25,729 bases of DNA from a virus. Lineage: Duplodnaviria; Heunggongvirae; Uroviricota; Caudoviricetes. The stretch is taken from IMG/VR virus record IMGVR_UViG_2585427783_000006, positions 1-25,729 of that record; one strand, written 5' to 3'. Position 1 is the first letter of the stretch, and each line of letters starts with the position of its first letter. A program made the position numbers and the translations under genes. A model generated the notes under the pieces. It did no database searches and was not told where the DNA came from. It saw only the letters and a list, made by a program, of their open reading frames with translations. This document shows, piece by piece, positions 1,428 through 17,215 of the stretch.

Positions 1428-1453
1428 TTATCTAAAACCTCGGTTTACAGGAA
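1428..1453. other. Inversion crossover site (gix/pix-like), left
   Basis: TTATCTAAAACCTCGGTTTACAGGAA matches the remembered Gin/Pin recombination site consensus; an inverted copy lies at 3208-3233. Confidence 0.75.
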
Positions 1454-1477
1454 ACGGTAAACAGGGCCAGGAACGCC

Positions 1478-2518
1478 GTGCAAAAGAATGGCGATACCTT
1501 GTCCGGTGGGCTTACTTTTGCAAACGACTCAATCCTTGCCTGGATTAGAAATACTGACTGGGCGAAGATTGGATTTAAAAATGATGCCGACAGCGATACT
1601 GATTCATACATGTGGTTTGAAACAGGCGACAACGGCAATGAATATTTCAAATGGAGAAGCCGCCATGGCACCACAACAAAAGACCTGATGAATCTTAAAT
1701 GGGGTGCTTTGTATGTTCTTGTTAAAGCCCTTTTCGGCAGTGAAGTAAAAATATCGACAGTCAATGCACTGAGGATTTTTAATTCATCCTTTGGTGCTAT
1801 TTTTCGCCGTTCTGAAGAACACCTGCATATCATCCCTACACGAGAAAATGAGGGTGAAAATGGAGATATTGGGCCATTAAGGCCATTCAACATCAACTTA
1901 AGAACAGGAGTTGTGTCTGTTGGTAATGGTGCCAGGATTGATGGCGGGCTGGCACTTGGCACGAATAACGCGTTGGGTGGGAACTCAATTGTTCTTGGTG
2001 ATAATGATACCGGATTTAAACAGAATGGTGATGGTATTCTTGATGTTTACGCTAATAGTCAGCGAGTATTCCGCTTTCAGAATGGAGTGGCTATTGCTTT
2101 TAAAAACATTCAGGCAGGTGATAGTAAAAAATTCTCGCTATCCAGCTCCAACAACTCCACGAAGAACGTAGGGTTTAATTTATGGGGCACTTCATCAAGA
2201 CCAACTGTTGCAGAGCTTGGTGATGATTCAGGCTGGCATTTCTATAGTCAGCGAAATACAGATAACTCAGTAACATTTGCTGTTAACGGTCAGATACAGC
2301 CCAGCAACTGGGGGAATTTTGATTCCCGCTATGTGAAAGATGTTCGCCTGGGTACGCGTGTTGTTCAATTGATGGCGCGTGGTGGTCGTTATGAAAAAGC
2401 CGGACACGCAATTACCGGATTAAGAATCATTGGTGAAGTAGATGGCGATGATGAAGCCATCTTCAGGCCAATACAAAAATACATCAATGGCACATGGTAT
2501 AACGTCGTACAGGTGTAA
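1478..2518 (+). CDS. stf: Side tail fibre variable C-terminal cassette (Sv'), promoterless; coding continues upstream to the crossover site
   Basis: QKNGDTLSGGLTFANDSILAWIRNTDWAKIGFKNDAD...GTWYNVVQV matches the C-terminal receptor-binding part of lambda Stf. It lies immediately after the left crossover site and inside the invertible segment. Confidence 0.8.
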   Translation: MQKNGDTLSGGLTFANDSILAWIRNTDWAKIGFKNDADSDTDSYMWFETGDNGNEYFKWRSRHGTTTKDLMNLKWGALYVLVKALFGSEVKISTVNALRIFNSSFGAIFRRSEEHLHIIPTRENEGENGDIGPLRPFNINLRTGVVSVGNGARIDGGLALGTNNALGGNSIVLGDNDTGFKQNGDGILDVYANSQRVFRFQNGVAIAFKNIQAGDSKKFSLSSSNNSTKNVGFNLWGTSSRPTVAELGDDSGWHFYSQRNTDNSVTFAVNGQIQPSNWGNFDSRYVKDVRLGTRVVQLMARGGRYEKAGHAITGLRIIGEVDGDDEAIFRPIQKYINGTWYNVVQV

Positions 2519-2521
2519 TTT

Positions 2522-3049
2522 ATGCAGCATTTAAAAAATATTAAGTCTGGAAATCCAAAAACAAAAGAACAATATCAGCTAACAAAGAATTTTGATGTTA
2601 TCTGGTTATATACAGAAGACGGTAAAAACTGGTATGAGGAAGTGAAAAACTTTCAGCCAGACACAATAAAGATTGTTTACGATGCAAATAATATTATTGT
2701 CGCCATCACCAAAGATGCCTCCACGCTTAACCCTGAAGGTTATAGCGTCGTTGAGGTTCCAGATATTACAGCCAACCGCCGCGCTGATGATTCCGGTAAG
2801 TGGATGTTTAGGGACGGAGCTGTGGTTAAACGGATTTATACGGCAGACGAGCAACAACAACAGGCCGAATCACAAAAGGCCGCATTGCTTTCCGAAGCTG
2901 AATCAGTCATCCAACCGCTGGAACGCGCTGTCAGGCTGAATATGGCAACAGACGAGGAACGCACACGACTGGAAGCATGGGAACGCTACAGTGTTCTGGT
3001 CAGCCGTGTGGATACGGCAAATCCTGAATGGCCACAAAAACCAGAGTAA
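2522..3049 (+). CDS. tfa: Tail fibre assembly protein Tfa, 175 aa
   Basis: Directly follows the Sv' cassette; Tfa-like C-terminus ([32 protein letters not shown]). Confidence 0.8.
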
Positions 3050-5037
3050 AAATTAAGGCCCGATGTCCAGACCTGACTATCGCCACCAATATTCAGCCAT
3101 GAGCTATATGCGCGGCAGGCACCAATATTTTTGGTGAAGGTATCTTTTCCTGGAATATCTGCGCCGTTCTGGTTTTTCTGTAATGCGCCAGAAGCCTGAC
3201 TTACCGTTTCCTGTAAACCGAGGTATTCGATAACAGCGGCAACGGTCGATTTCGCAAGAATATCCCGCCCGACTTTTGTCAGGGTTGCCAGGCTGGCGAC
3301 ATCATTCCCCGTAAAATACGGAAACCTGTCTGCCGCAGTAGCAAGCCCGGCCAGCGCCGTCAGGGTGGCATCTTTCGGTTGCTTACCCGCAAGCGCGTTA
3401 GTCATGGTGGTCGCAAAATTCGGGTCGTTTCCCAGCGCCGCCGCCAGCTCGTTCAGCGTATTCAGTGCGTCAGGCGACGAGTCTACAAGTGCGGCAATCG
3501 CGGCCATCACATAAGCCGTGCTTGCGATCTGAGTATTATTAGTCCCTTTTGGCGCAGTTGGCGTTGTTGGCGTTCCGGTCAGCGCAGGACTGTTTAAAGG
3601 CGCTTTCTTGTTCGTTTCATCCATTACCGCCTTAACCGCTTTTGGTGTCGCAGCCAGCGTTTCAGACGGGCTGTTAGTGGCGCTACTGAGCTGAACTATC
3701 CCTTTTCGTGCCGTCGTTGCATCCTGAGCGGTATATTTTGCGTTAGCAAGGTCATATGCTGCCTTTACTGCCTTTGGTGTTGCCGCCAGTGACTCGGAAG
3801 TGCTGTTGGTCGCACTGCTGAGCTGAACCACACCTTTTTTCGTCGTGCTCGCATCTTCCAGAGATACGGCATCAGCAATATCCTCTGCCCGTTTTGCTGC
3901 TGTTTCGGCACGCGTTGCCGCGGATTCAGCAGCAACTTTGCTCTGAGATGCAGCCGTCGCACTGCCTGCCGCCTCTGATGCTTTCGTTGTTGCTGTCGTG
4001 GCACTACCTTTCGCTGCTGACGCTTGTCTGGTCGCCTCATCTTTTGAAGCAGACGCAGATGATGCCGATGACGCCGCTGAACCAGCGGACGATGCGGCTG
4101 CCGCCTTAGAGGAAGCAGCATTGTCTGCTGAAGTCTTTGCATTTGTTTCAGAGGTTTTTGCTGCAGAAGCAGACCTCGCTGCTGCAGTGGCTTGCTTAGT
4201 GGCTTCGCCAGCCTTCGTTGTGGCTGTTGAAGCGGATGATGCGGCGCTTTCTGCCGATTTTCCGGCGGCGGTGGCACTGGCTGAGGCCTGCCCGGCACTT
4301 GTTGACGCGGCACTGGCCGACGATGCAGCCGCTGTTTTTGAACCTGCCGCAGCTGAGGCACTCTGTGCTGCTGCCGTTTCAGAAGACTTAGCGTTTGTCT
4401 CAGACGTCTTTGCCGCCTTCGCGGAATTTCCTGCCGCCGTTGCCGAGGAAGCTGCACTACTGGCACTTGATGATGCATTCGTTTCTGATGATTTCGCTGC
4501 CTCTTTTGAGGCCGCCGCCCCCCGTGCCGAGGTGGCAGCTTCTGACGCCTTCGTGGTCGCTGTGGATGCAGAAGTGGCTGCCGATTTTTGTGATGCTGCG
4601 GCATTCGTTTCTGACGTTTTCGCGGCACTGGCGCTGGTAGCTGCCGCGCTTTTTGATGACTCTGCAGCAGCAGCACTTTTCGCTGCTTCACTGGCCTTTG
4701 TCGATGCCGTTCCTGCGCTGGAAGACGCTGACTGAGCCGACGACGCGGCCTGTCCGGCTGACGTGCTGGCTGCGCGTGCTGAGCCTGCAGCATCAGTCGC
4801 ATGGGTTGCCGCCTCACGGGCTGATGTGCTGGCATCACTGGCTGACTTCTTCGCGGCTGCCGTGTTCTGTGCCACTGCGGACGCGTTACGCGCCACCTCT
4901 TCCACCATCAGTTCAAAACGGCGCAGTGCCTCCGGACGGGCATCATCCTCCGTCATGGCACCGAGAAAATCATTCAGCGTACCGGGTCGGGAATCTTCAT
5001 ACACGGTGATGGTCCCGGCATGTGACGGCGGGAATCC
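2986..5037 (-). pseudogene. stf: Side tail fibre Stf constant region, N-terminally truncated by the J-stf deletion and currently joined to a non-homologous C-terminal stub
   Basis: GFPPSHAGTITVYEDS...long Ala/Ser-rich repeats...AVIEYLGLQETV matches lambda Stf from about residue 60 to the crossover point. After the crossover the frame reads antisense through the tfa 3' end. Confidence 0.8.
3208..3233. other. Inversion crossover site (gix/pix-like), right, inside the stf reading frame
   Basis: TTCCTGTAAACCGAGGTATTCGATAA is the inverted partner of 1428-1453 (16 bp identical in one half-site). It encodes ...IEYLGLQE... at the constant/variable junction of the tail fibre. Confidence 0.75.
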
Positions 5038-7165
5038 GGAACGATACCGACGCCGGATCGCCCTGCTGTCCCCATGCATTTACTGCCCGGACTGTCAGCC
5101 TGTAGTTCCCCAGAGCCAGTTGTGTGAAGCGGTAAGTGGTTTCCGTCGTCCGGGCCGTGCTGACCAGCCGCTCACTGCCGTCATCCGCTGCCACGGTCAG
5201 GCGAAGCATAAAGCTCACCCCCTTCACCACCTTCGGCGTGTCCCAGCGGGCCAGCACCTGGTATTCCCCGCTGTCTGCGGTGACTTCGGCGGTCAGATGC
5301 TGCACTGCTGGCGGCGTGACACCATTCACCGTGCCGCTCTGGTTACCGTCAAAGTGCGCCCCGTTATCCACGATGGCTTCTTTCTCCGGTACATGCTGCA
5401 CTGCAGTGATGGCATACGTACCGTCGTCGTTCTCACGGATACTCACACAGCGGAACAGGCGCTGGCGCAGCGTCGGCAGCTTCAGCCCCCACACGCTGTA
5501 CTCGGCAACGCCGTCAGGAACCCGGCTCACTTTCACCTTCACGCCGTCGGTGATGGACTGGACCTCCACGCTGACCGGATTGCCACTTCCGTCAACCAGG
5601 CTTATCAGCGTGGTGCCGGAGGATGGCAGCGTGATTTCACGGTCGAGCGTCAGCGTCCGGGTCTGGCTGTTCACCGCCAGCACGCGCCCGCCGGTGCTGA
5701 TACCGGCATAGTCATCATCGCAGATTTCAATGACATCGCCCGGTACATGGCGAAGCCCTTCGGCACCCACGCTGAAGTCCACGGTCTGCGTCTCCAGCAG
5801 TTCTGTTTTAATCAGCCACAGCCCGGCGCGGTGTGCCTGCCCCCGGCTGGTACAGCCAAAAGCATCCATCTTCGTGACGTTACGGCCGTAACGGGCAATG
5901 GCCTGCGTGTCCTCCACAAGCTCTGTCGCCGTCTCCCAGCCGTTGTTCGGGTCAATCCAGTTCACCTCAACGGCATTATGGCGGTCCTTCAGGGCGCTGA
6001 AGCTGTAGCGGAACGGCGCGCCATCATCCGGCATCACCACATTACTGCGGTTATAGGTCCACACCTTATCTGATGGTCGGTCCTGCACGAACGTCAGCGT
6101 CTGCCCGTTCCATACCGGCATACAGCGCATCGCCGAGCAGAAATCACTGAGCACATCCCACGCCTTGCGCTGTGTGGTCAGGTACGCATTACAGGTGATG
6201 CGCGGCTCCGTGCCGCCAAAGCCGTCCGGCACTGACTGGTCGCAGTACTGGCCGATAACATACAACGCCCATTTATCCACATCCGCCGCACCAAGACGTT
6301 TCCCCATGCCGTAGCGCGGATGGGTCAGCATATCCCACAGACACCAGGCCATGTTGTTGCTGTATGCCGGTTTAAACGTTCCGTCCCAGATACCGCTGTA
6401 TTGCCGCGTCTGCGGGTTATAATTCGACGGCACCTGCAGAATACGCCCGCGCAGATGATAATTACGGCTCACCTGCTGGCTGCCGAACTGCTCCGAGTCC
6501 ACCTGCACGCCGACCAGTACCGTGTTCGGGTAGCACTGTTTCACATCGATAATTTCGGTGTATGACGACCAGAGCGTTTTGTTCTGCAGCTGGTCTGTGG
6601 TGCTGTCCGGCGTCATCCTGCGCATCCGGATACTGAACGGGCGCGGCGGCAGGTTATCCACCACCACCGAGGCCAGATACTGTGAAGTGGTTTTACCCTT
6701 AATGGTGATGTCTTTTTCCGTCACCCAGCCACCGTTACGCTGGATCTGAACCAGCAGGCGGACTTCCGACGGATTCCTGTCCCCCTTTGAGGTGGTTTCC
6801 ACCAGTGCCTGCACGCCGAAGGTAAAACGCAGTCGGTCAATGTTTGCCGACGTGATGGTCCGGGTGATCGGCGTGTCGTATTTCACTTCCGTACCCAGCA
6901 CCGTCTCGGAGCCGGAGGATTCAAATCCCTCCGGCGGTGTCTGCTCCTGCTCACCGGCCCGGAACACCACCGTGACGCCGGATATATTGGTATTCCCCTC
7001 ACTGTCCAGCACCGGCGTACTGTTCAGCAGCACGCTTTTTAATCCATCCACCGGACCTTCAACCGGCCCTTCGCTGATAGCATCGATCACACTCAGCAGC
7101 TGCGTGGACTTCAGGTTGTCCTTCGCTTCGCGCGGGGTATGCCCCTTACTGCTGCCTTTACCCAT
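4997..7165 (-). pseudogene. J: Host specificity protein J, truncated after about residue 716; C-terminal receptor-binding region deleted
   Basis: MGKGSSKGHTPREAKDNLKSTQLLSVIDAISEGP... is near-identical to lambda J through ...ASVSFRI, then 11 unrelated codons and a stop. Full J is remembered as about 1130 aa. Confidence 0.85.
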
Positions 7166-7225: not shown

Positions 7226-7897
7226 TCAGCGACCAATCACCACAACCTGACCACCGTCCCCTTCGTCTGCCGTGCTGATCTCCTGAGAAACCACACGTGA
7301 TCCCACGCGCATTTCACCGTACAGAACGGGCAGAACATTGCCCTAGGCAACCATGTTATCCAGTGAGGAGAAATAGGTGTTTTGTTTGCCGTTATCCGTT
7401 GTCTGTGTACGGGGAGTTCTGGCTTTCGGTGCCAGCATCTGGGCCACACCACCGAGCACCATACTGGCACCGAGAGAAAACAGGATGCCGGTCATACCAC
7501 CGGCCCCAATGGCTGCCCCCCATGCTGCAAGGGTGGCTCCGGCAGTAAAGAATGATCCGGCAATGGCGGCTGCTCCCAGGACAATCTGGAATACGCCACC
7601 TGACTTGGCCCCGGCGACTCTGGGAACAATATGAATCACAGCGCCATCAGGCAGAGTCTCATGTAACTGCGCCGTCAACCCGGACGTGCTGACGTCCCGC
7701 CCGGCAATCCGTACCTGATACCAGCCATCGCTCAGTTTCTGACGAAACGCCGGGAGCTGTGTGGCCAGCGCCCGGATGGCTTCAGCCCCCGTTTTCACAC
7801 GAAGGTCGATGCGGCGGCCAAATCGTTGTAAATCCCCGTAAAGGCAGATGCGTGCCATGCCCGGTGACGCCAGAGGGAGTGTGTGCGTCGCTGCCAT
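7226..7897 (-). pseudogene. I: Tail assembly protein I with an in-frame amber (TAG) codon at 7343-7345
   Basis: MAATHTLPLASPGMARICLYGDL...SSLDNMVA then TAG where lambda has Gln. The same frame continues GNVLPVLYGEMRVGSRVVSQEISTADEGDGGQVVVIGR to a stop at 7226-7228. Confidence 0.8.
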
Positions 7898-8538
7898 TTT
7901 TCGGTATACCTCTCTCGTTTGCTCAGTTGTTCAGGAATATGGTGCAGCAGCTCGCCGTCACCACAGTAAATGGCGGCATGATTCGGCACCGATGAACCAA
8001 AACAGCACAGCAGCACATCGCCCGGCTGCGCCGCTGACAACGGCACCTGATACAGCCCTGTGGCCTCCAGATTATCCAGATAGAGATTCTGACCGTTACG
8101 CCACCAGTCATCCTCACGATGAAAATCCGGCATCTCAATCCCCGCCAGATGGTAAGCATCCCGGAACAGCGTGTAACAGTCCGTCACCCCGTGCTCAAAG
8201 CGCCGCCCGGTGAGATGCGGCACACAGCGGAATTTATGAATCGCCCCCCGGCAGACCAGCCACCACGGCAAATCACTCTGCACCTGCAACCGCCGGTCAG
8301 CCTCACTCAGCCAGGGCAGACCACCGGGGTGACTGTGGACCAGCGCCACAATCTCACCCTGCATTTCTGCCTGCAGCCAGTCCTCCGGAGCCATCCGGAA
8401 ATAATCCTCCGGCTCACCGGAAATATTCACGCCGGGAAAATATCTTTCCCCCTCCGGCGTTCTCACCACGAAGCCGCACGACTCCGCTGGCGCACATCGC
8501 CGGGCGTGCGCCAGGATCGCTGATTCTGTCTCTGTCAT
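7795..8538 (-). CDS. K: Tail assembly protein K (JAMM/MPN plus NlpC/P60-like)
   Basis: MTETESAILAHARRCAPAESCGFVV...HSHPGG... Start chosen at the ATG at 8538; the longer ORF listed in the track is an upstream extension overlapping L. Confidence 0.8.
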   Translation of the reverse strand: MTETESAILAHARRCAPAESCGFVVRTPEGERYFPGVNISGEPEDYFRMAPEDWLQAEMQGEIVALVHSHPGGLPWLSEADRRLQVQSDLPWWLVCRGAIHKFRCVPHLTGRRFEHGVTDCYTLFRDAYHLAGIEMPDFHREDDWWRNGQNLYLDNLEATGLYQVPLSAAQPGDVLLCCFGSSVPNHAAIYCGDGELLHHIPEQLSKRERYTEKWQRRTHSLWRHRAWHASAFTGIYNDLAAASTFV

Positions 8539-8542
8539 GGGA

Positions 8543-9241
8543 TTACTGCGAAAGTTTGTTAATGGAAAGGAAGCCGCCAAAGTTGCCGACGTTATTGCGA
8601 AACTTACAGCCACTCAGGCATTTGCTGCATTTATCCTTCGTGATATCGGACGTCGGCTGGTCATATTCATCCGCGACAGCCGGACCGCTATAACCGCACT
8701 CGTCACCGCGATAGGTCCAGGTGCAGGTGTTGGCCAGCATGATACGTCCCGGAAAAACAGCGCCATCCGTTTCCGTCGGCGTGGACAGTACAAAAGAGGC
8801 ACTGACTGCGCTCAGTTCGCTGCACTGCTCGATGCGCCAGCGGCTGATCACCTCCTGCTCCGGATCGGCGTCTCTGTTTCCGTTGACGAAGTTCACCGCA
8901 TCCAGAAAACGGGCGTAAACCTTACGCCGGACCACCGTTCCGCCGACCAGACTCTGCAGATCTTCCGCCATCCCGGTGACCATACCGTACAGGTTAGAAA
9001 CCGTCAGCGTGGGGCGCGTACTGGTGCCTTTGCCATTCAGTTCAAAACCACTCCCCTGAATGGGATACGGCTGATACTGTCGCCCCTGCCAGGTGACCGG
9101 CTCACCTTTTTCGTTCTGCTCATTACAGAAAAAATAACGTTCTCCACCGACCTCTGTCAGGTCGATTTCCCAGAGCACCACGCTGGCCGACTGCTCCGCA
9201 CGGGTGCATTCATTCAGTGTTTCCTGCCGGATATCCTGCAT
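8543..9241 (-). CDS. L: Tail tip protein L, 232 aa
   Basis: MQDIRQETLNECTRAEQSASVVLWEIDLTEVGGERYFFCNEQNEKGEPVTWQGRQYQPYPIQ... lambda L-like, in lambda synteny. Confidence 0.85.
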   Translation of the reverse strand: MQDIRQETLNECTRAEQSASVVLWEIDLTEVGGERYFFCNEQNEKGEPVTWQGRQYQPYPIQGSGFELNGKGTSTRPTLTVSNLYGMVTGMAEDLQSLVGGTVVRRKVYARFLDAVNFVNGNRDADPEQEVISRWRIEQCSELSAVSASFVLSTPTETDGAVFPGRIMLANTCTWTYRGDECGYSGPAVADEYDQPTSDITKDKCSKCLSGCKFRNNVGNFGGFLSINKLSQ

Positions 9242-9570
9242 CAGTTCACCACCTGTTCAAACTCTGCGCTGAACTCAACACGCAGCATACTGACCCGCGA
9301 CGACCATTTTGCGCAGGTCACCTTTATCTGCCGCCACTCATAAGGCGGCGTCCACAGAAAGGCTTTCCAGCCCCCGTGCTCAGCCAGAAACGACTCCAGC
9401 GCCGTGGCCTCCTCACGGGAGACAGACAGCGTCACGCTGTACGTTTTCAGGTCAGCGTTCAGCCCGGCAGGCGCTCGCTGAGAATAGCCATCACCAAAGC
9501 GCACCTTTCTTACGGAAGGGGCCGAAGCCACATCCATACCGGGTTTCGCTTTCCAGCGGAAGGTCTTCAT
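9241..9570 (-). CDS. M: Tail protein M, 109 aa
   Basis: MKTFRWKAKPGMDVASAPSVRKVRFGDGYSQRAPAGLNADLKTYSVTL... lambda M-like, in lambda synteny. Confidence 0.85.
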   Translation of the reverse strand: MKTFRWKAKPGMDVASAPSVRKVRFGDGYSQRAPAGLNADLKTYSVTLSVSREEATALESFLAEHGGWKAFLWTPPYEWRQIKVTCAKWSSRVSMLRVEFSAEFEQVVN

Positions 9571-12041
9571 CGTCCACCTCCGGAGAACAGACCACCATCG
9601 CGCATCTGTGCCTGAATTTCATCACGGGCCCCCTTACGGGCCATGTCATACACTGCCTTCATCATCTGTGGACCTGGCAGACCATTCGTACCGTCGTTCT
9701 GAATCACCACGTGATTGTTCTGATTAAAATTAATGCCTTCCGCCCGCCGCATCTGCGCCGGACTTCCGGCACCGCCCACATAACCACCTTCCGCATAGCC
9801 GCGCATCAGCCGGTAGAGATTTCCCACGCCAATCCGGCTGGTTGCCTCCTTCGTGAAGACAAATTCACCACGGTGAACAATCCCCGCTGGCTCATATTTG
9901 CCGCCAGTTCCCGTAAATCCCCCGGTCGCAAAATGGAATTTTGCCGCAGCAGCCTGAATGGCTGTACCGCCTGACACTGATGCGCCACCACCGGCAGCAC
10001 CGCCAATGGCGCTGCCGATACTCCCGACAATTCCCACCATTGCCTGCTTAAGCAGAATTTCTGTCATCATGGACAGCACGGAACGGGTGAAGCTGCGCCA
10101 GTTCTGCTCACTGCCGGTCAGCATCGCCGCCATATTCTGTGCAATACCATCAAAGGTCTGCGTGGCAGCACTTTTAACCTGCGACATACTGTCCGTGGCG
10201 CTCTCTTTCCACTCACTCCAGCCTGACCTGAGGCCTGCCATCCAGCTCCCGCGAAGCTGGTCTTCAGCTGCCCAGGTCTTTTTCTGCTCTGACATGACGT
10301 TATTCAGCGCCAGAGGATTATCGCCATACTGTTCCTTCAGGCGCTGTTCCGTGGCTTCCCTCGCTGCCTGCCGGTCAGTCAGCCCCCGGTTTTTCGCATC
10401 AATGGCGGCCCGTTTTGCCCGTTGCTGCTGTGCGAATTTATCCGCCTGCTGTGCCAGCGCGTTCAGGTGTTCCTGATAGGTGACCTTGTCGCCAAGTGCA
10501 GCCAGCTGGCGTTTGTACTCCAGCGTCTCATCTTTATGCGCCAGCAGGGATTTCTCCTGTGCAGACAGCTGGCGACGTTGCGCCGCCTCCTCCAGTACCG
10601 CGAACTGACTCTCCGCCTTCCACAAATCCCGGCGCTGCTGGCTGATTTTTTCATTCGCTCCACTATGCTGCTCAAGCATTTTTAGTTCAGCTTGTAACGC
10701 AAGAAGAGCTGCATGTGCTCGATCTTCCTGACGCTCTCCCGCAGCGGACTGCTTCGGCTTTTTCAGCGTCGCTTCATAGTCCTTTTTCGCCGCCGCCATC
10801 AGCGTGTTGTAATCTGCCTGCAGGATTTTCCCGTCTTTCAGTGCCTTGTTCAGTTCTTCCTGACGAGCGGTATATTTCTCCAGCGGCGTCTGCAGGCGTT
10901 CGTAAGCCTTCTGCGCCTCTTCGGTATATTTCAGCCGTGATGCCTCAGACTCGGCCCAGTCCTTTGCTGCCATCTCTCTGGCCTTTTCAAGATCGGCCTG
11001 CAACGTGGCGGCTGAAAGCCCAAGTTGCGCATTCGCTCTGTCCTCCCATGCTCCCCGGAGATTGGCAAGAAATGCTGAGGTTTTACCGCGCCGGTGGCTC
11101 CGGCTCTGATACCACTGCCATTTTTTGTCCGCCTCATCAAAAGCCTTTTCTGCTTTCTCCAGCATTCCCTGGGCAGTGTCCGGGCGACCAATATCCAGCA
11201 CCGCATCCCACATGGATTTGAATGCCCGTGCTGTCCTGTCTGCCCAGGTCTCCAGCGTGCCCATGTTCTCTTTCAGGCGGAGGGTCTGGTCATCAAACCC
11301 TTTCGTTGCGGCCTCGTTCGCCGCCTGCAATGCCCCGGCTTCATCTCCGGAACGCTGCAACTGAGCAACATACGCAATCTGCTCCGCCGTCACGTTATGG
11401 AACTGACGTGCCATCGCTGTCAGTCCCGACGTCGGGTCTGTGGTCAGCTTCCCGAAGGCTTCAGCGACCTTGTCCACCTCCACGCCGGATGCAGAGGAGA
11501 AACGCGCCACACTCTGGCTGATCGCCTCAAACTGCTCACCACCACGCACACCGGCATTCACCAGCGCCGTCAGTGACTCGCTGGTCTGGTTAAACGTCAG
11601 CCCTGCCGCCTGCCCGGCTCTGGACAGGACCAGCATACGATCTGCCGTCAGTCCCGCCTGATTGCCGGAAAGGACCAGCGTTTTGTTGAAATCGGACAGG
11701 GTTGAGTTGCCCTGATACCAGGCATACGCCAGCGCACCGGTCGCCACCGCCAGCGAGGTGGCCCCCACCATCGGCAGGGTGATCGCACCGGCAAGCCCCC
11801 TGAACATGGGGATCATCCCGCCGAAGGAGTCCTTCACCTGACCACCCTGTTGCAGCAGGATCAGCCACGGACTTTGCCCGCCTGCAAGCTGCGTGGCCAC
11901 GTCAGTGAACTGTGCAGGCAGCATACGCATGGCGGCTTTATACTGTCCGACGGAAATGGCCATTGCGGCGGCACCGGGCACCGCCGTTCTGCTGATACGG
12001 CTGAGGTTTTCAACGGCCTGCTCAAGACCTTTTATGGCCAT
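9567..12041 (-). CDS. H: Tape measure protein H carrying the N-terminal ~29 codons of tail gene Z (in-frame Z'-'H deletion fusion), 824 aa
   Basis: The N-terminus MAIKGLEQAVENLSRISRTAVPGAAAMAI matches the remembered lambda Z start; from SVGQYKAAMRMLPAQFTDVATQLAGG onward it matches lambda H. The gene begins 12 nt after the FII stop, where Z should sit. Confidence 0.75.
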   Translation of the reverse strand: MAIKGLEQAVENLSRISRTAVPGAAAMAISVGQYKAAMRMLPAQFTDVATQLAGGQSPWLILLQQGGQVKDSFGGMIPMFRGLAGAITLPMVGATSLAVATGALAYAWYQGNSTLSDFNKTLVLSGNQAGLTADRMLVLSRAGQAAGLTFNQTSESLTALVNAGVRGGEQFEAISQSVARFSSASGVEVDKVAEAFGKLTTDPTSGLTAMARQFHNVTAEQIAYVAQLQRSGDEAGALQAANEAATKGFDDQTLRLKENMGTLETWADRTARAFKSMWDAVLDIGRPDTAQGMLEKAEKAFDEADKKWQWYQSRSHRRGKTSAFLANLRGAWEDRANAQLGLSAATLQADLEKAREMAAKDWAESEASRLKYTEEAQKAYERLQTPLEKYTARQEELNKALKDGKILQADYNTLMAAAKKDYEATLKKPKQSAAGERQEDRAHAALLALQAELKMLEQHSGANEKISQQRRDLWKAESQFAVLEEAAQRRQLSAQEKSLLAHKDETLEYKRQLAALGDKVTYQEHLNALAQQADKFAQQQRAKRAAIDAKNRGLTDRQAAREATEQRLKEQYGDNPLALNNVMSEQKKTWAAEDQLRGSWMAGLRSGWSEWKESATDSMSQVKSAATQTFDGIAQNMAAMLTGSEQNWRSFTRSVLSMMTEILLKQAMVGIVGSIGSAIGGAAGGGASVSGGTAIQAAAAKFHFATGGFTGTGGKYEPAGIVHRGEFVFTKEATSRIGVGNLYRLMRGYAEGGYVGGAGSPAQMRRAEGINFNQNNHVVIQNDGTNGLPGPQMMKAVYDMARKGARDEIQAQMRDGGLFSGGGR

Positions 12042-12052
12042 ACATCCCCCTT

Positions 12053-12406
12053 TCAGCGGCGACGGTTAACGGCAGGCGGTACGCCCCGCCCAAGCCAGAG
12101 ATGACAGCTTCCGCCATCATCCGGCGAAATCCGGTCTATCCAGAAGTTTTCCTCACCGATGGTCAGCGTGTCGCCGCGCCGCAGCTGCCGCACATCATCA
12201 GTCCGGACAAACAGGGACGGGCTGGAGCCTTCAACGCGCACGCCCTGTCCGGCATAGCTGATATTTTCAGGGTCATCAAAAACACCACGTATCACAGCAC
12301 CGGACTGCTCACCGGATGTCATGGTGGCTGACGTTCCCATGTACCCGCGTATCGTTTCATCGGCGCAGGCAATGGCAGCATCGAACAGGTTATCGAAATC
12401 AGCCAC
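12053..12406 (-). CDS. FII: Head-tail joining protein FII, 117 aa
   Basis: MADFDNLFDAAIACADETIRGYMGTSATMTSGEQSGAVIRGVFDDPENISYAGQGVRVEG... lambda FII-like. Confidence 0.8.
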   Translation of the reverse strand: MADFDNLFDAAIACADETIRGYMGTSATMTSGEQSGAVIRGVFDDPENISYAGQGVRVEGSSPSLFVRTDDVRQLRRGDTLTIGEENFWIDRISPDDGGSCHLWLGRGVPPAVNRRR

Positions 12407-12417
12407 AGCGCCTCCCG

Positions 12418-12813
12418 TTATTGCATTCTGGCCAGGCCACGTTCTGTCATTTCGGCTGCCACACCGGCAGAGACACGAAACGCCGTTCCCGGCAGCACAA
12501 ATGCCACAGGTTCATCCCGCGTGGCGTGAAGTGCATCGGTATGCAGCGTCACCAGTGCCACAACCGTGACCAGAGCAGCCGTATCAGTCACGGTATCCGT
12601 CTGTGCTGATACCACCTCATTTTCATGTCCGGTCAGCGAATTTTCCGGGCTGACAGACGTGTCCTGACCGGCTGCGTCATCCGTGTCATCAAGCTCCTCT
12701 TCCAGCTCTGCCACACGGAGCGCCAGTTCTTCTTTCGTCCCCGTCAGGCTGACATCACGGTTCAGTTGCTCACCCAGCGACCGGAGACGGGCAATCAGTT
12801 CATCTTTCGTCAT
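12418..12813 (-). CDS. FI: DNA packaging protein FI, 131 aa
   Basis: MTKDELIARLRSLGEQLNRDVSLTGTKEELALRVAELEEELDD... lambda FI-like. Start at the ATG at 12813, preceded by a GGAGGAG Shine-Dalgarno sequence. Confidence 0.8.
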   Translation of the reverse strand: MTKDELIARLRSLGEQLNRDVSLTGTKEELALRVAELEEELDDTDDAAGQDTSVSPENSLTGHENEVVSAQTDTVTDTAALVTVVALVTLHTDALHATRDEPVAFVLPGTAFRVSAGVAAEMTERGLARMQ

Positions 12814-12854: not shown

Positions 12855-13880
12855 TTACGCCAGTTGAACGGACACGAACTCATCAGGATCAGCCAGCAGC
12901 ATCAGCGGTGCTGACTGAATCATGGTGAACTCTCGCGCCGGATCGCCGGATGTCTTCCAGTTTTTCGGATAACGGGGAGACGCATTAATACCCTCACTCA
13001 ATGCATCCGCATCCTGAATACAGCCATAGGTGCGCAGACCGCGTGCATGAGTGTTCCCCAGCACCATCGTGTTGTCCGGCAGGAAGTTCTTTTTGACGCC
13101 GTTTTCCACGTACTGTCCGGAATACACGACGATGGCCACATCGCCATACATTCCCTTATAAGACACCGCTTTGCCCAGGTCTTTTACCGCTGTCTCCAGT
13201 TCGGAATGAGAGCCGCGACGGGTATCCAGCTTCTCCCTGACGGCTTTGAAGGAACGGAACAGCGCCCAGCCTTTCGGGTCAAACACGATGATATTCACCA
13301 CGCCGCTGGCGTTCAGCGCGTAGGCTTCGATATCGTCGGTCGGGTCATACGTGGACTTGTCACGCTTGCTCCACTCCGTGCCGCCGGACTGCGTGATGTT
13401 GTTCGCCGCACTGCGGCCCATATCCACCTCGACCGGATCGAAGGCTTCACCGGTCATGGTGTATTTGCCCTTGAGCACGGCAGAAACGGCCTGCATCTCT
13501 TCGACCTGAGCAATGGCCTGCTCTTCGTCACGCATGTTCTGCATGATGATGCGACGGCGGCGGTAAGCCGGGTCCGCCAGATTCTGTGGATCTTCATCCG
13601 GCAGGCGACGCAGGGTCATCTGCGGATTCACCTCATGCTTCGGCTTGACATATCCCGGCGTAAATTCGGAGGTGGAGCCGCCACGGGAGCGGATAACCTC
13701 ACCGGAAACAATCGGCGAAACGTACAGCGCCATATTTACCAATCCCGGAATTTGTGAGAGATAGACTTTCTCCGTGGTGAAGGGATAGCTTTCACGGAAA
13801 AAGAGACGCAGAAACAGCGGATCAAACTTAAATTTCTGCTCATTTGCCGCCAGCAGCTGGGCGGTTGTGTACATCGACAT
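12855..13880 (-). CDS. E: Major capsid protein E, 341 aa
   Basis: MSMYTTAQLLAANEQKFKFDPLFLRLFFRESYPFTTEKVYLSQIPGLVNMALYVSPIVSGEVIRSRGGSTSEFTPGYVKPKHEV... near-identical to remembered lambda E. Start at the ATG at 13880. Confidence 0.9.
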   Translation of the reverse strand: MSMYTTAQLLAANEQKFKFDPLFLRLFFRESYPFTTEKVYLSQIPGLVNMALYVSPIVSGEVIRSRGGSTSEFTPGYVKPKHEVNPQMTLRRLPDEDPQNLADPAYRRRRIIMQNMRDEEQAIAQVEEMQAVSAVLKGKYTMTGEAFDPVEVDMGRSAANNITQSGGTEWSKRDKSTYDPTDDIEAYALNASGVVNIIVFDPKGWALFRSFKAVREKLDTRRGSHSELETAVKDLGKAVSYKGMYGDVAIVVYSGQYVENGVKKNFLPDNTMVLGNTHARGLRTYGCIQDADALSEGINASPRYPKNWKTSGDPAREFTMIQSAPLMLLADPDEFVSVQLA

Positions 13881-14248
13881 AAAAAAATCCCGTAAAAAAA
13901 GCCGCACACCAGCGATGCAATATCCTGCTGGTGGATGAACGACAGAATCTTCACCGACACCACCGATACCAGCACCGCACACAGCGCATCTGCCGATGTA
14001 CCGTCATACCCTGTTTTTGATGCAATCCAGGCTGACAGCACACGCGCTCCCAGCACGCCGACAATAAACGACACCAGAAAATGCGCCACCACGCGCCAGA
14101 CTGAAAGTGACTGCGGCATCGTTGCCACAAATAACGCCCCGGCGAACGCGCCAAACACAATCCCGAAATCCATCCCGGTAAACAGCCCGAATACCGTCGC
14201 GCCACCCAGCGCCGCAGCCGTGCCGGAACCGGATAAGGGTTCAGACAT
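13736..14248 (-). CDS. Predicted 3-TM membrane protein (holin-like?); its 3' end reads into the E start region and is probably disrupted
   Basis: MSEPLSGSGTAAALGGATVFGLFTGMDFGIVFGAFAGALFVA... has three hydrophobic helices in the first ~125 aa. The last ~45 codons are low-complexity (CRCTQPPSCWRQ...) and overlap the E start by about 145 nt. Confidence 0.45.
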   Translation of the reverse strand: MSEPLSGSGTAAALGGATVFGLFTGMDFGIVFGAFAGALFVATMPQSLSVWRVVAHFLVSFIVGVLGARVLSAWIASKTGYDGTSADALCAVLVSVVSVKILSFIHQQDIASLVCGFFYGIFLCRCTQPPSCWRQMSRNLSLIRCFCVSFSVKAIPSPRRKSISHKFRDW

Positions 14249-14340
14249 ACTTCCTCCTGAAAATAAAAAAAGGGCCACCAGCGACCCGTAAAAAAACACC
14301 CCGTCAAAGGCACCCGCAGATGCCTTTTGTGTGATGTTAT

Positions 14341-14493
14341 TCAGATTTTCGCAGTAAAGGCCGGAGCACGATCAGCGCCATCGCCACCAGCACACCATCT
14401 GCCAGCACTGACATCAGTCGTCCGGTGAAATCCACCATCACTACCAGAAACAACAGGATGACAGCCAGCACAAGGCGCGCACTTTTCACAGGT
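14341..14493 (-). CDS. Possible small hydrophobic protein (~50 aa, GTG start overlapping the upstream stop)
   Basis: My translation gives VKSARLVLAVILLFLVVMVDFTGRLMSVLADGVLVAMALIVLRPLLRKSE; the GTG overlaps the TGA of the 74-aa ORF (cTGTGa). The ORF track lists a different frame of this region. Confidence 0.3.
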   Translation of the reverse strand, partial: TCEKCAPCAGCHPVVSGSDGGFHRTTDVSAGRWCAGGDGADRAPAFTAKI

Positions 14494-14710
14494 ACTGCTC
14501 CAGCGGCAACTGCAGCGCCTGCGCAATTTTCTTCAGTTGCGCTTCTTCTTCCTGACCGATACCGTCCTGGTCAGCGATATCCAGACACAGACACAGCACA
14601 TTCACAGTATCATCAGTATCTGCAACATCAGTCAGCTGACGAAGGGCTTCAGCATTAGCAGAACGCGGTGGCGCTTCATAACGGGCGCGGATATGAAAAA
14701 GGCCCGCCAA
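14486..14710 (-). CDS. Hypothetical acidic protein, 74 aa
   Basis: ORF starts 23 nt downstream of a tRNA 3' end; no recognised family. Confidence 0.3.
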   Translation of the reverse strand: MAGLFHIRARYEAPPRSANAEALRQLTDVADTDDTVNVLCLCLDIADQDGIGQEEEAQLKKIAQALQLPLEQYL

Positions 14711-14732
14711 AGCGAGCCTGGAAAAATAAGCG

Positions 14733-14809
14733 TGGCGCGTTGTACTGGATTCGAACCAGTGACCGATTGCTTAGAAGGCAATTGCTCTGTCCGGCTGAGC
14801 TAACAACGC
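14733..14809 (-). tRNA. argN: tRNA-Arg (anticodon UCU; argN/argU-like)
   Basis: Folded by hand: 7-bp acceptor stem GCGTTGT/ACAACGC, D-arm GCTC/GAGC, anticodon loop CTTCTAA, T-loop GGTTCGAATCC, 3' GCCA. Confidence 0.85.
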
Positions 14810-14906: not shown

Positions 14907-14982
14907 TGGTGGCCCTTGCTGGATTTGAACCAGCGACCTGGCGATTATGAGTCGCTCGCTCTCACCACTGAGCTAAAGGGCC
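14907..14982 (-). tRNA. ileZ: tRNA with CAU anticodon, ileX/ileZ-like (tRNA-Ile2 reading AUA; could alternatively be tRNA-Met)
   Basis: Sequence closely resembles remembered E. coli ileX. Acceptor stem GGCCCTT/AAGGGCC, anticodon loop CTCATAA, T-loop GGTTCAAATCC, CCA encoded. Confidence 0.8.
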
Positions 14983-16660: not shown

Positions 16661-17215
16661 TCAAGACATTTTTTGAGCAAACGATTCTCGCATAGGGATG
16701 TATAGCGCATATTCAGCAACAGCTAACCAATTAGCAATTCGCTTTTCGCATGTACTAAAACACCATTCCGGGTGCACCTCATTCAACAATTCAGCCATTT
16801 TGCGTTTACTCATCCCCCGCCCTTCGTACCTTTGCCGCAGGATATCAATCAATCCAGGATAACGTGCAAGCGCTTTACTTATCACCCCATCAATGCGTAA
16901 CGCCTCTGCATCAGTACAGTGAGACAACCAGCTCTTCTGTCTGCCAGCGATCATCTCTCGCAAGAATGCTTCCAGCTCTGGTTTATCAATCCCTGACTCC
17001 CTGATTCTACGCAGGGCTTCATTGATTGCGGTTTTTGTCAGTTTTTTGGATGCCAGCAACTGATTGAACATATTTCCTGGTTTGCCACCACCTATATACG
17101 ACCAACGCCCCCACATCCGTAATTTCCCCTGGATCCAGACGGCTTCCAGCGTTTTTAGACGTAAATGCTCGCCGCTTTTGCCTGTAATTTCCGGGTATAT
17201 CATATTTACGATCAC
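16661..17215 (-). CDS. Q: Antitermination protein Q (late gene regulator), 184 aa
   Basis: Immediately downstream of rusA with start/stop overlap, as in other lambdoid prophages; followed by a promoter-like region and terminator. Family assignment from synteny and weak motif resemblance (KLRMWGRW). Confidence 0.6.
   Translation of the reverse strand: MIVNMIYPEITGKSGEHLRLKTLEAVWIQGKLRMWGRWSYIGGGKPGNMFNQLLASKKLTKTAINEALRRIRESGIDKPELEAFLREMIAGRQKSWLSHCTDAEALRIDGVISKALARYPGLIDILRQRYEGRGMSKRKMAELLNEVHPEWCFSTCEKRIANWLAVAEYALYIPMRESFAQKMS

Follow-up and report, generated by a model that had tools for sequence, protein, structure and literature searches.

In E. coli, cryptic lambdoid prophages (DLP12, Rac and Qin, for example) lose their lysis, packaging and structural genes stepwise by internal deletion, a decay that leaves behind gene fragments and fusion ORFs like those found in the 25,729-nt stretch of phage DNA analysed here in its entirety (hereafter the window). 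Such cryptic ('grounded') E. coli lambdoid prophages are reviewed in PMC6379469. Unlike DLP12, Rac and Qin, the prophage in the window is very young, being at least 99.9% identical to an intact sibling, and it is met in three decay states in three strains. The lambda head cluster, Nu1-A-W-B-C/Nu3-D-E-FI-FII, is represented in the window by FI and FII (identified by Pfam) and by what is left of the D-E terminator, its 3' arm and T run; over the first 381 nt of E and the 28 nt upstream, lambda and the window have 97.8% DNA identity. In contrast to lambda, Nu1 through D are missing and the break runs through the loop of the terminator hairpin. The annotated holin region of the Stx2e phage phiP27 has ~85% DNA identity to the window holin. 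Holins of the Phage_holin_8/PHROG 198 type share with it the N-terminal 114 residues and every hydrophobic segment, whereas in the window the last 15 residues and the partner genes are gone and 56 unrelated residues have been added. A literature search on the Phage_holin_8 (PF16931) holin family yielded an unrelated phage genome paper and no experimental work.

Intact sibling prophages are present in the enterotoxigenic E. coli (ETEC) strains ATCC 43896 (NZ_CP024278.1, about 2,448,600-2,482,800) and 504838 (NZ_CP025856.1). They resemble the window in gene content, integration site and accessions of E and FII (with DNA identity of 99.9-100% for ATCC 43896 in the tail, head and late-regulatory segments), but unlike the window they keep the 7,953 bp that separate holin codon 114 from the D-E spacer and the 2,658 bp from Z to H. 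Their gene order is tRNA-Ile, tRNA-Arg, TerB remnant, DUF3927, holin (129 aa), second holin (91 aa, PHROG 217), M15 endolysin (PHROG 465), small ORFs, Nu1, A, W, B, C, D, E, FI, FII, Z, U, V, G, T and H, and in ATCC 43896 an IS66 element lies inside the large terminase gene. BLAST aligns the window with ATCC 43896 in three colinear blocks (100%, 99.95% and 99.93% identity) that are interrupted precisely at the two scars described below; against 504838 the early and late-regulatory part is 99.96% identical and the head segment 96.3%. Recombination between prophages, considered on account of this 96.3%, was dropped once ATCC 43896 was found to be at least 99.9% identical on both sides. The prophage lies downstream of potA-potB in both ATCC 43896 and the junction-bearing strain E1620, and positions 1-1460 of the window match the DNA directly after potB in E1620. 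Given this shared potB-adjacent position, the window, the junction-bearing and the intact prophages are alleles of one prophage at one site. As in defective prophages, the window occupies the site of an intact relative and has lost essential genes through internal deletions. With a probability of roughly 95%, we read the region between the holin and E as the junction of an ~8-kb illegitimate-recombination deletion in a lambda-like prophage by potB in an enterotoxigenic E. coli lineage.

Genes around the holin-E junction

Every gene in the E-to-holin part of the window is on the minus strand (Table 1). The first-pass annotation described a head module reduced to E-FI-FII, with no D, Nu3, C, portal or terminase upstream of E, and this description stands. 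Each of the three genes is full length, and D, C/Nu3, portal, W and terminase are absent across the whole window according to the ORF list, Pfam and contig annotation, so that only E, FI and FII of a complete lambda-type head and packaging module are present. Terminase and portal genes, for which a search had been proposed, are found in the 504838 and ATCC 43896 prophages. The E protein (WP_032327490.1) is annotated in the junction-bearing strains E1433 and E1620 and in undeleted ATCC 43896, the FII accession (WP_000752960.1) is annotated in undeleted relatives, and the DNA of E1433 and E1620 is 100% identical to the window across the compared parts. In the gene that follows FII, the first ~30 codons of Z are joined in frame to the tape-measure gene H.

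On the other side of the junction, the TerB remnant is labelled 'incomplete, missing N-terminus' in RefSeq, is full length in other strains and abuts tRNA-Arg. Since the same truncation occurs in intact prophages, it predates the holin-E deletion. The tRNA-Arg(tct) at 14733-14809 is accompanied by a tRNA with anticodon CAT at 14907-14982, called Met by ARAGORN and tRNA-Ile by RefSeq, a pair that resembles the ileZ-argN/argO tRNA genes lying upstream of lysis and stx in Stx phages. Farther along the window, hokD and a Q-family antiterminator are separated by two plus-strand genes (19679-21088) inserted against the direction of the late-regulatory genes, one for a DUF6731 protein (304 aa) and one for a hypothetical protein of 159 aa; both are possibly cargo or defence genes. 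The prophage has two Q-like genes, at 16661-17215 (DUF1133) and 21094-21630 (Q family).

Table 1. Features of the E-to-TerB part of the prophage, in window coordinates
Feature	Position	Strand	Evidence or remark
Z'-'H in-frame fusion, 824 aa	9567-12041	minus	Minor_tail_Z 1-34/190 + TMP_2 + Tape_meas_lam_C
FII head-tail joining protein, 117 aa, intact	12053-12406	minus	Phage_attach E 2e-19
FI, 131 aa, intact	12418-12813	minus	Pfam Packaging_FI E 3e-51; RefSeq CDS coordinates
E, major capsid protein, 341 aa, intact	12855-13880	minus	Phage_cap_E E 1.4e-72; ATG at 13880
Chimeric/overlap ORF	13736-14299	minus	187 aa counted from GTG at 14299 (ORF list)
Novel tail of chimeric ORF, 56 codons + stop	13736-13906	minus	D-E spacer remnant, then E in wrong frame
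D-E spacer remnant, 28 nt	13881-13908	minus	3' arm GCGGC, T7 run, ACGGGATTTTTTT, then E ATG
Native holin portion, codons 1-114 of 129	13907-14248	minus	identical to WP_001695854.1 aa 1-114
Terminator-like hairpin	14272-14296	minus	GGGTCGCTGGTGGCCC + T7; terminator scan; directly upstream of holin ribosome-binding site
DUF3927 small membrane protein, intact, upstream neighbour of holin	14337-14489	minus	DUF3927 E 1e-14; PHROG 1470
TerB-family remnant, N-terminus missing	14486-14689	minus	PHROG 632 'tellurite resistance', profile 73-143/143

The ORF that overlaps E

A membrane-protein ORF had been reported to read about 145 nt into E, and the overlap is indeed exactly 145 nt (13736-13880), with the two genes in different frames ((14248-13880) mod 3 = 2). 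Its coding start is the ATG at 14248, which has AGGAGG in front of it and gives a product of 170 aa. The GTG start of the ORF list was dropped because intact homologues begin at the ATG and the AGGAGG precedes the ATG; it is also disfavoured by the public protein collection, which has the 170-aa form without the 187-aa form. A Kyte-Doolittle scan of the product finds three strong hydrophobic stretches at approximately aa 25-46, 47-77 and 85-107 and a weaker N-terminal one at 19-35, in keeping with the several transmembrane segments of a small holin and with the original description as a 3-TM protein.

The ORF matches Phage_holin_8 (PF16931) in Pfam with 77.8 bits against a gathering cutoff of 26.4, the curated threshold of the family (E 9.8e-22, profile 1-108/121), and the PHROG 198 holin family with E 1.8e-39 (profile positions 1-116/125). 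Of the two identities suggested by the first-pass annotation, holin remnant or cargo, the latter was dropped because of these matches, and the membrane protein is predicted from them to be a holin cut off at its C-terminus. Divergence from the intact holin begins past residue 114 (CGFFYGIFLCRC...), and the last 15 residues (SGVFSRLRGGGGNVK) and the stop codon are missing from the window copy. The gene is accordingly not full length: residues 115-129, the basic C-terminal tail, are replaced by a 56-residue tail with 10 K+R and one additional hydrophobic stretch. The statement that there is no recognisable lysis cassette needs correction in this light, as the membrane protein is itself the first gene of that cassette and only the remainder is gone. 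A holin of this type opens a lysis cassette beside an endolysin gene; in the window that setting has been lost, and E comes after the holin fragment. Most likely, the 170-aa chimera is a non-functional by-product.

Junction, missing DNA and repeated motifs

Megablast of positions 13500-14750 of the window against 5,426 complete E. coli genomes splits the query at its positions 403-409, and the holin side and the E side each match thousands of genomes separately. BLAST segments of the window against the intact prophages overlap at 13902-13908, where six of seven bases are microhomologous (CCGcACA vs CCGgACA). Three-way alignments with the flanks of the 504838 and ATCC 43896 loci (L002 and L003, respectively; L001 and L004 are those of E1433 and E1620) place the deletion junction at ACA, 13906-13908, which is common to both parental sequences. 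The break falls after codon 114 of 129 on the holin side and 28 nt upstream of the ATG on the E side. Missing at this point relative to strain 504838 are 7,953 bp with the second holin, the M15 endolysin, small ORFs, cos, Nu1, A, W, B, C and D. The junction, its parentage and the gene losses are read directly from these alignments. They uphold the first-pass view of the region as a deletion scar: instead of a full-length membrane-protein gene overlapping E, the intact relatives have a 129-aa holin gene that ends normally ~8 kb from E, and parentage in the window switches at 13906-13908. A second scar at 11955-11957, with an overlap of ~3 nt at the junction, lacks 2,658 bp relative to ATCC 43896, comprising the rest of Z, U, V, G, T and the start of H.

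The E-side breakpoint lies within the loop of the rho-independent terminator hairpin between D and E, the 5' arm of which is deleted. The intact D-E spacer folds as GCCGC-CUGU-GCGGC followed by a U run (-12.2 kcal/mol), whereas in the window version a stable hairpin is lacking (centroid 0, z = 0.46). In phage HK629 this element, likewise between D and E, carries the annotation 'rho-independent terminator'. Short motifs on both sides of the holin fragment had been proposed as possible recombination endpoints, and their recurrence is real. The 12-mer CCCGTAAAAAAA occurs in exact copies at 13889-13900 and 14285-14296, 396 nt apart, and has three matches with at most one mismatch against 0.15 expected, a number reached in 0 of 100 shuffles. 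CCAGCGA occurs at 13909 and 14278 and at eight further sites in the window (10 in total vs 3.8 expected). Their proposed role as endpoints did not hold, as both 12-mer copies and the junction-side CCAGCGA sit at their own positions in undeleted relatives and the break is at ACA, which falls between the first-pair copies of the two motifs. The 12-mer copy at 13889 is part of the D-E spacer and consists, on the coding strand, of the terminator T run followed by ACGGG. Written on that strand it is TTTTTTTACGGG, and its copy at 14285-14296 leads into the hairpin ahead of the holin. This hairpin contains the second copies of both motifs, and its region is unbroken and 99.9% identical in undeleted relatives. 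The simplest reading of the T7-ACGGG shared by two terminator-like elements is coincidence.

Sibling alleles, alternative readings and consequences

The junction is present in two of the 5,426 complete E. coli genomes, E1433 (Morocco) and E1620 (Argentina), both from diarrhoeal stool; these are 2 of the 3,337 complete genomes with any match by megablast. It is also found in the draft assembly GCA_000714095.1 on contig JOQM01000038.1, the gene content of which is that of the window, including the 824-aa Z-H fusion. The exact 34-nt junction has no match in species-representative genomes and none in JGI metagenome contigs, a result that indicates rarity only and is otherwise uninformative. RefSeq labels the gene 'putative holin, incomplete, missing C-terminus' in E1433 and E1620. 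In GenBank, KEL32163.1 (E. coli 5-366-08_S4_C2) is exactly the 170-aa chimera and is named 'putative phage major capsid protein E', a misannotation due to the overlap of the chimera with E. The junction is no new gene arrangement but an ordinary, previously annotated pseudogene junction in a defective prophage of young age.

The holin-E scar is common to the window, E1433 and E1620, and the parts downstream of it differ. The window retains E-FI-FII-Z'H-M-L-K-I and has a further junction at 5028-5038 with an 11 nt overlap, where ~2.26 kb of E1433/E1620 is missing. Lost there are the C-terminal part of J, lom and the N-terminal part of a tail-fibre gene, leaving ORFs at 4997-7165 and 2986-5079. 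E1433 retains J and lacks the counterparts of window 8769-8965 and of 9470-12042, the latter comprising the whole of Z'H and the beginning of M. In this strain (L001 11824-12545), L is also frameshifted. E1620 (L004 12746-14381) lacks window 7771-12787, which has produced an FI'-'I fusion of the first ~21 FI codons to tail gene I and has left E as the sole remaining head gene. As the scar is present in all three alleles while the downstream deletions differ, the holin-E deletion is ancestral to the three and the later deletions arose independently. Identity among the junction-bearing alleles, and between them and the intact relative, is at least 99.9% (one difference in 1,954 nt against the latter), and E is intact in three of three.

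Separately from these losses, the segment at 1428-3233 of the window, comprising a tail-fibre tip and tail-fibre-assembly region, is inverted relative to E1433 and E1620, and an alternative cassette of ~1.35 kb is absent. A 'recombinase family protein' beside this segment is only 64-72 aa long in relatives, because of which the segment looks like a decayed invertible host-range switch.

Several other readings of the holin-E region were weighed. A native compact layout, with E naturally beginning inside a conserved, full-length membrane protein gene, could draw on the length of the uninterrupted ORF (170-187 aa) and on the listing of KEL32163.1 as a protein in one GenBank record. However, the last 56 residues have no holin-family counterpart, the Pfam and PHROG matches end at the junction, and RefSeq treats the chimera gene as a pseudogene. 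In the protein collection the intact 129-130-aa holin is encoded on hundreds of contigs and the chimera on one, and just 2 of 3,337 matching genomes carry the junction. Already refuted by the intact relatives, such a layout has a negligible probability. Deletion by recombination between the CCCGTAAAAAAA or CCAGCGA repeats, with the motifs as endpoints, is suggested by the exact, above-chance duplication of the 12-mer and by one copy of each motif lying within 10 nt of the junction. Exchange between direct repeats would leave a single copy, but both 12-mers persist at their ancestral positions; moreover the motifs flank the surviving holin fragment rather than the deleted DNA, the ACA at which parentage switches is outside both of them, and CCAGCGA is found 10 times in the window. 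The three-way alignment had already refuted this route, and we regard it as extremely improbable.

That the junction instead joins two different prophages, or is a chimera of assembly, is equally hard to credit. The contrast between the head segment and the early region of 504838 (96.3% and 99.96% identity, respectively) does point to mosaicism among relatives, but ATCC 43896 carries both flanks at 99.9-100% in one contiguous prophage, with the same order, orientation and potB site. The junction is common to three independent assemblies, and it is no assembly artefact since two of these are independently finished genomes, the third being the draft. A further alternative is domestication, with the chimeric holin kept by selection as a membrane-active toxin or the retained E as a capsid interfering with superinfecting lambda-like phages. 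It would account for the survival of E in all three decayed alleles, and as the only head gene of E1620, while independent deletions took DNA downstream of E and reached FI in E1620, and for the retention of every hydrophobic segment of the holin. On the other hand, the alleles descend from one common ancestor and differ from the intact relative by one in 1,954 nt, so that intactness is expected without selection. The junction is also very rare, and the basic C-terminal tail of the holin has been swapped for out-of-frame sequence. Domestication is therefore very unlikely. The intactness of E in three alleles is no evidence of selection, because shared ancestry leaves too little divergence and time. 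It is similarly doubtful, to a high degree, that E, alone or with the chimeric holin, is being selectively kept in the ETEC lineage while the late region erodes; a retained E might act on superinfecting lambda-like phages as a decoy or as a poison subunit.

Under the preferred reading, a single deletion, the ancestral late region ran from the tRNAs through the TerB remnant, DUF3927, holin, second holin, M15 endolysin and small ORFs to cos/Nu1 and A onward. One deletion within this single prophage brought holin codon 114 to within 28 nt of the E start, using 3 bp (6/7) of microhomology and with the E-side break in the loop of the D-E terminator hairpin. The holin frame, minus its last 15 codons and its stop, now continues across what remains of the spacer and, out of frame, over 145 nt of E to give the 170-aa chimera. 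The same event removed the remaining lysis cassette and all packaging and head-assembly genes but E, FI and FII. RecA-independent illegitimate events are the usual origin of such scars, and we infer a mechanism of replication slippage or of some other RecA-independent joining at microhomology, possibly favoured by the hairpin. A prophage undergoing 'grounding' is expected to shed its lethal lysis functions, and loss of the lethal lysis genes was probably neutral or advantageous for the host. With the rest of the lysis cassette and the packaging and head genes save E, FI and FII deleted, the prophage is predicted from its gene content to be unable to finish lysis, package DNA or form particles.

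The locus provides a base-resolved case of one microhomology deletion disarming a lambda-like prophage, with endolysin, cos, terminase, portal, protease and decoration genes gone at once. It matters little beyond annotation, where the leftover fusion ORF can mislead gene callers. Together with the two sibling strains, the window forms a small natural series of stepwise ETEC prophage decay, of potential use as a lineage marker or in teaching.
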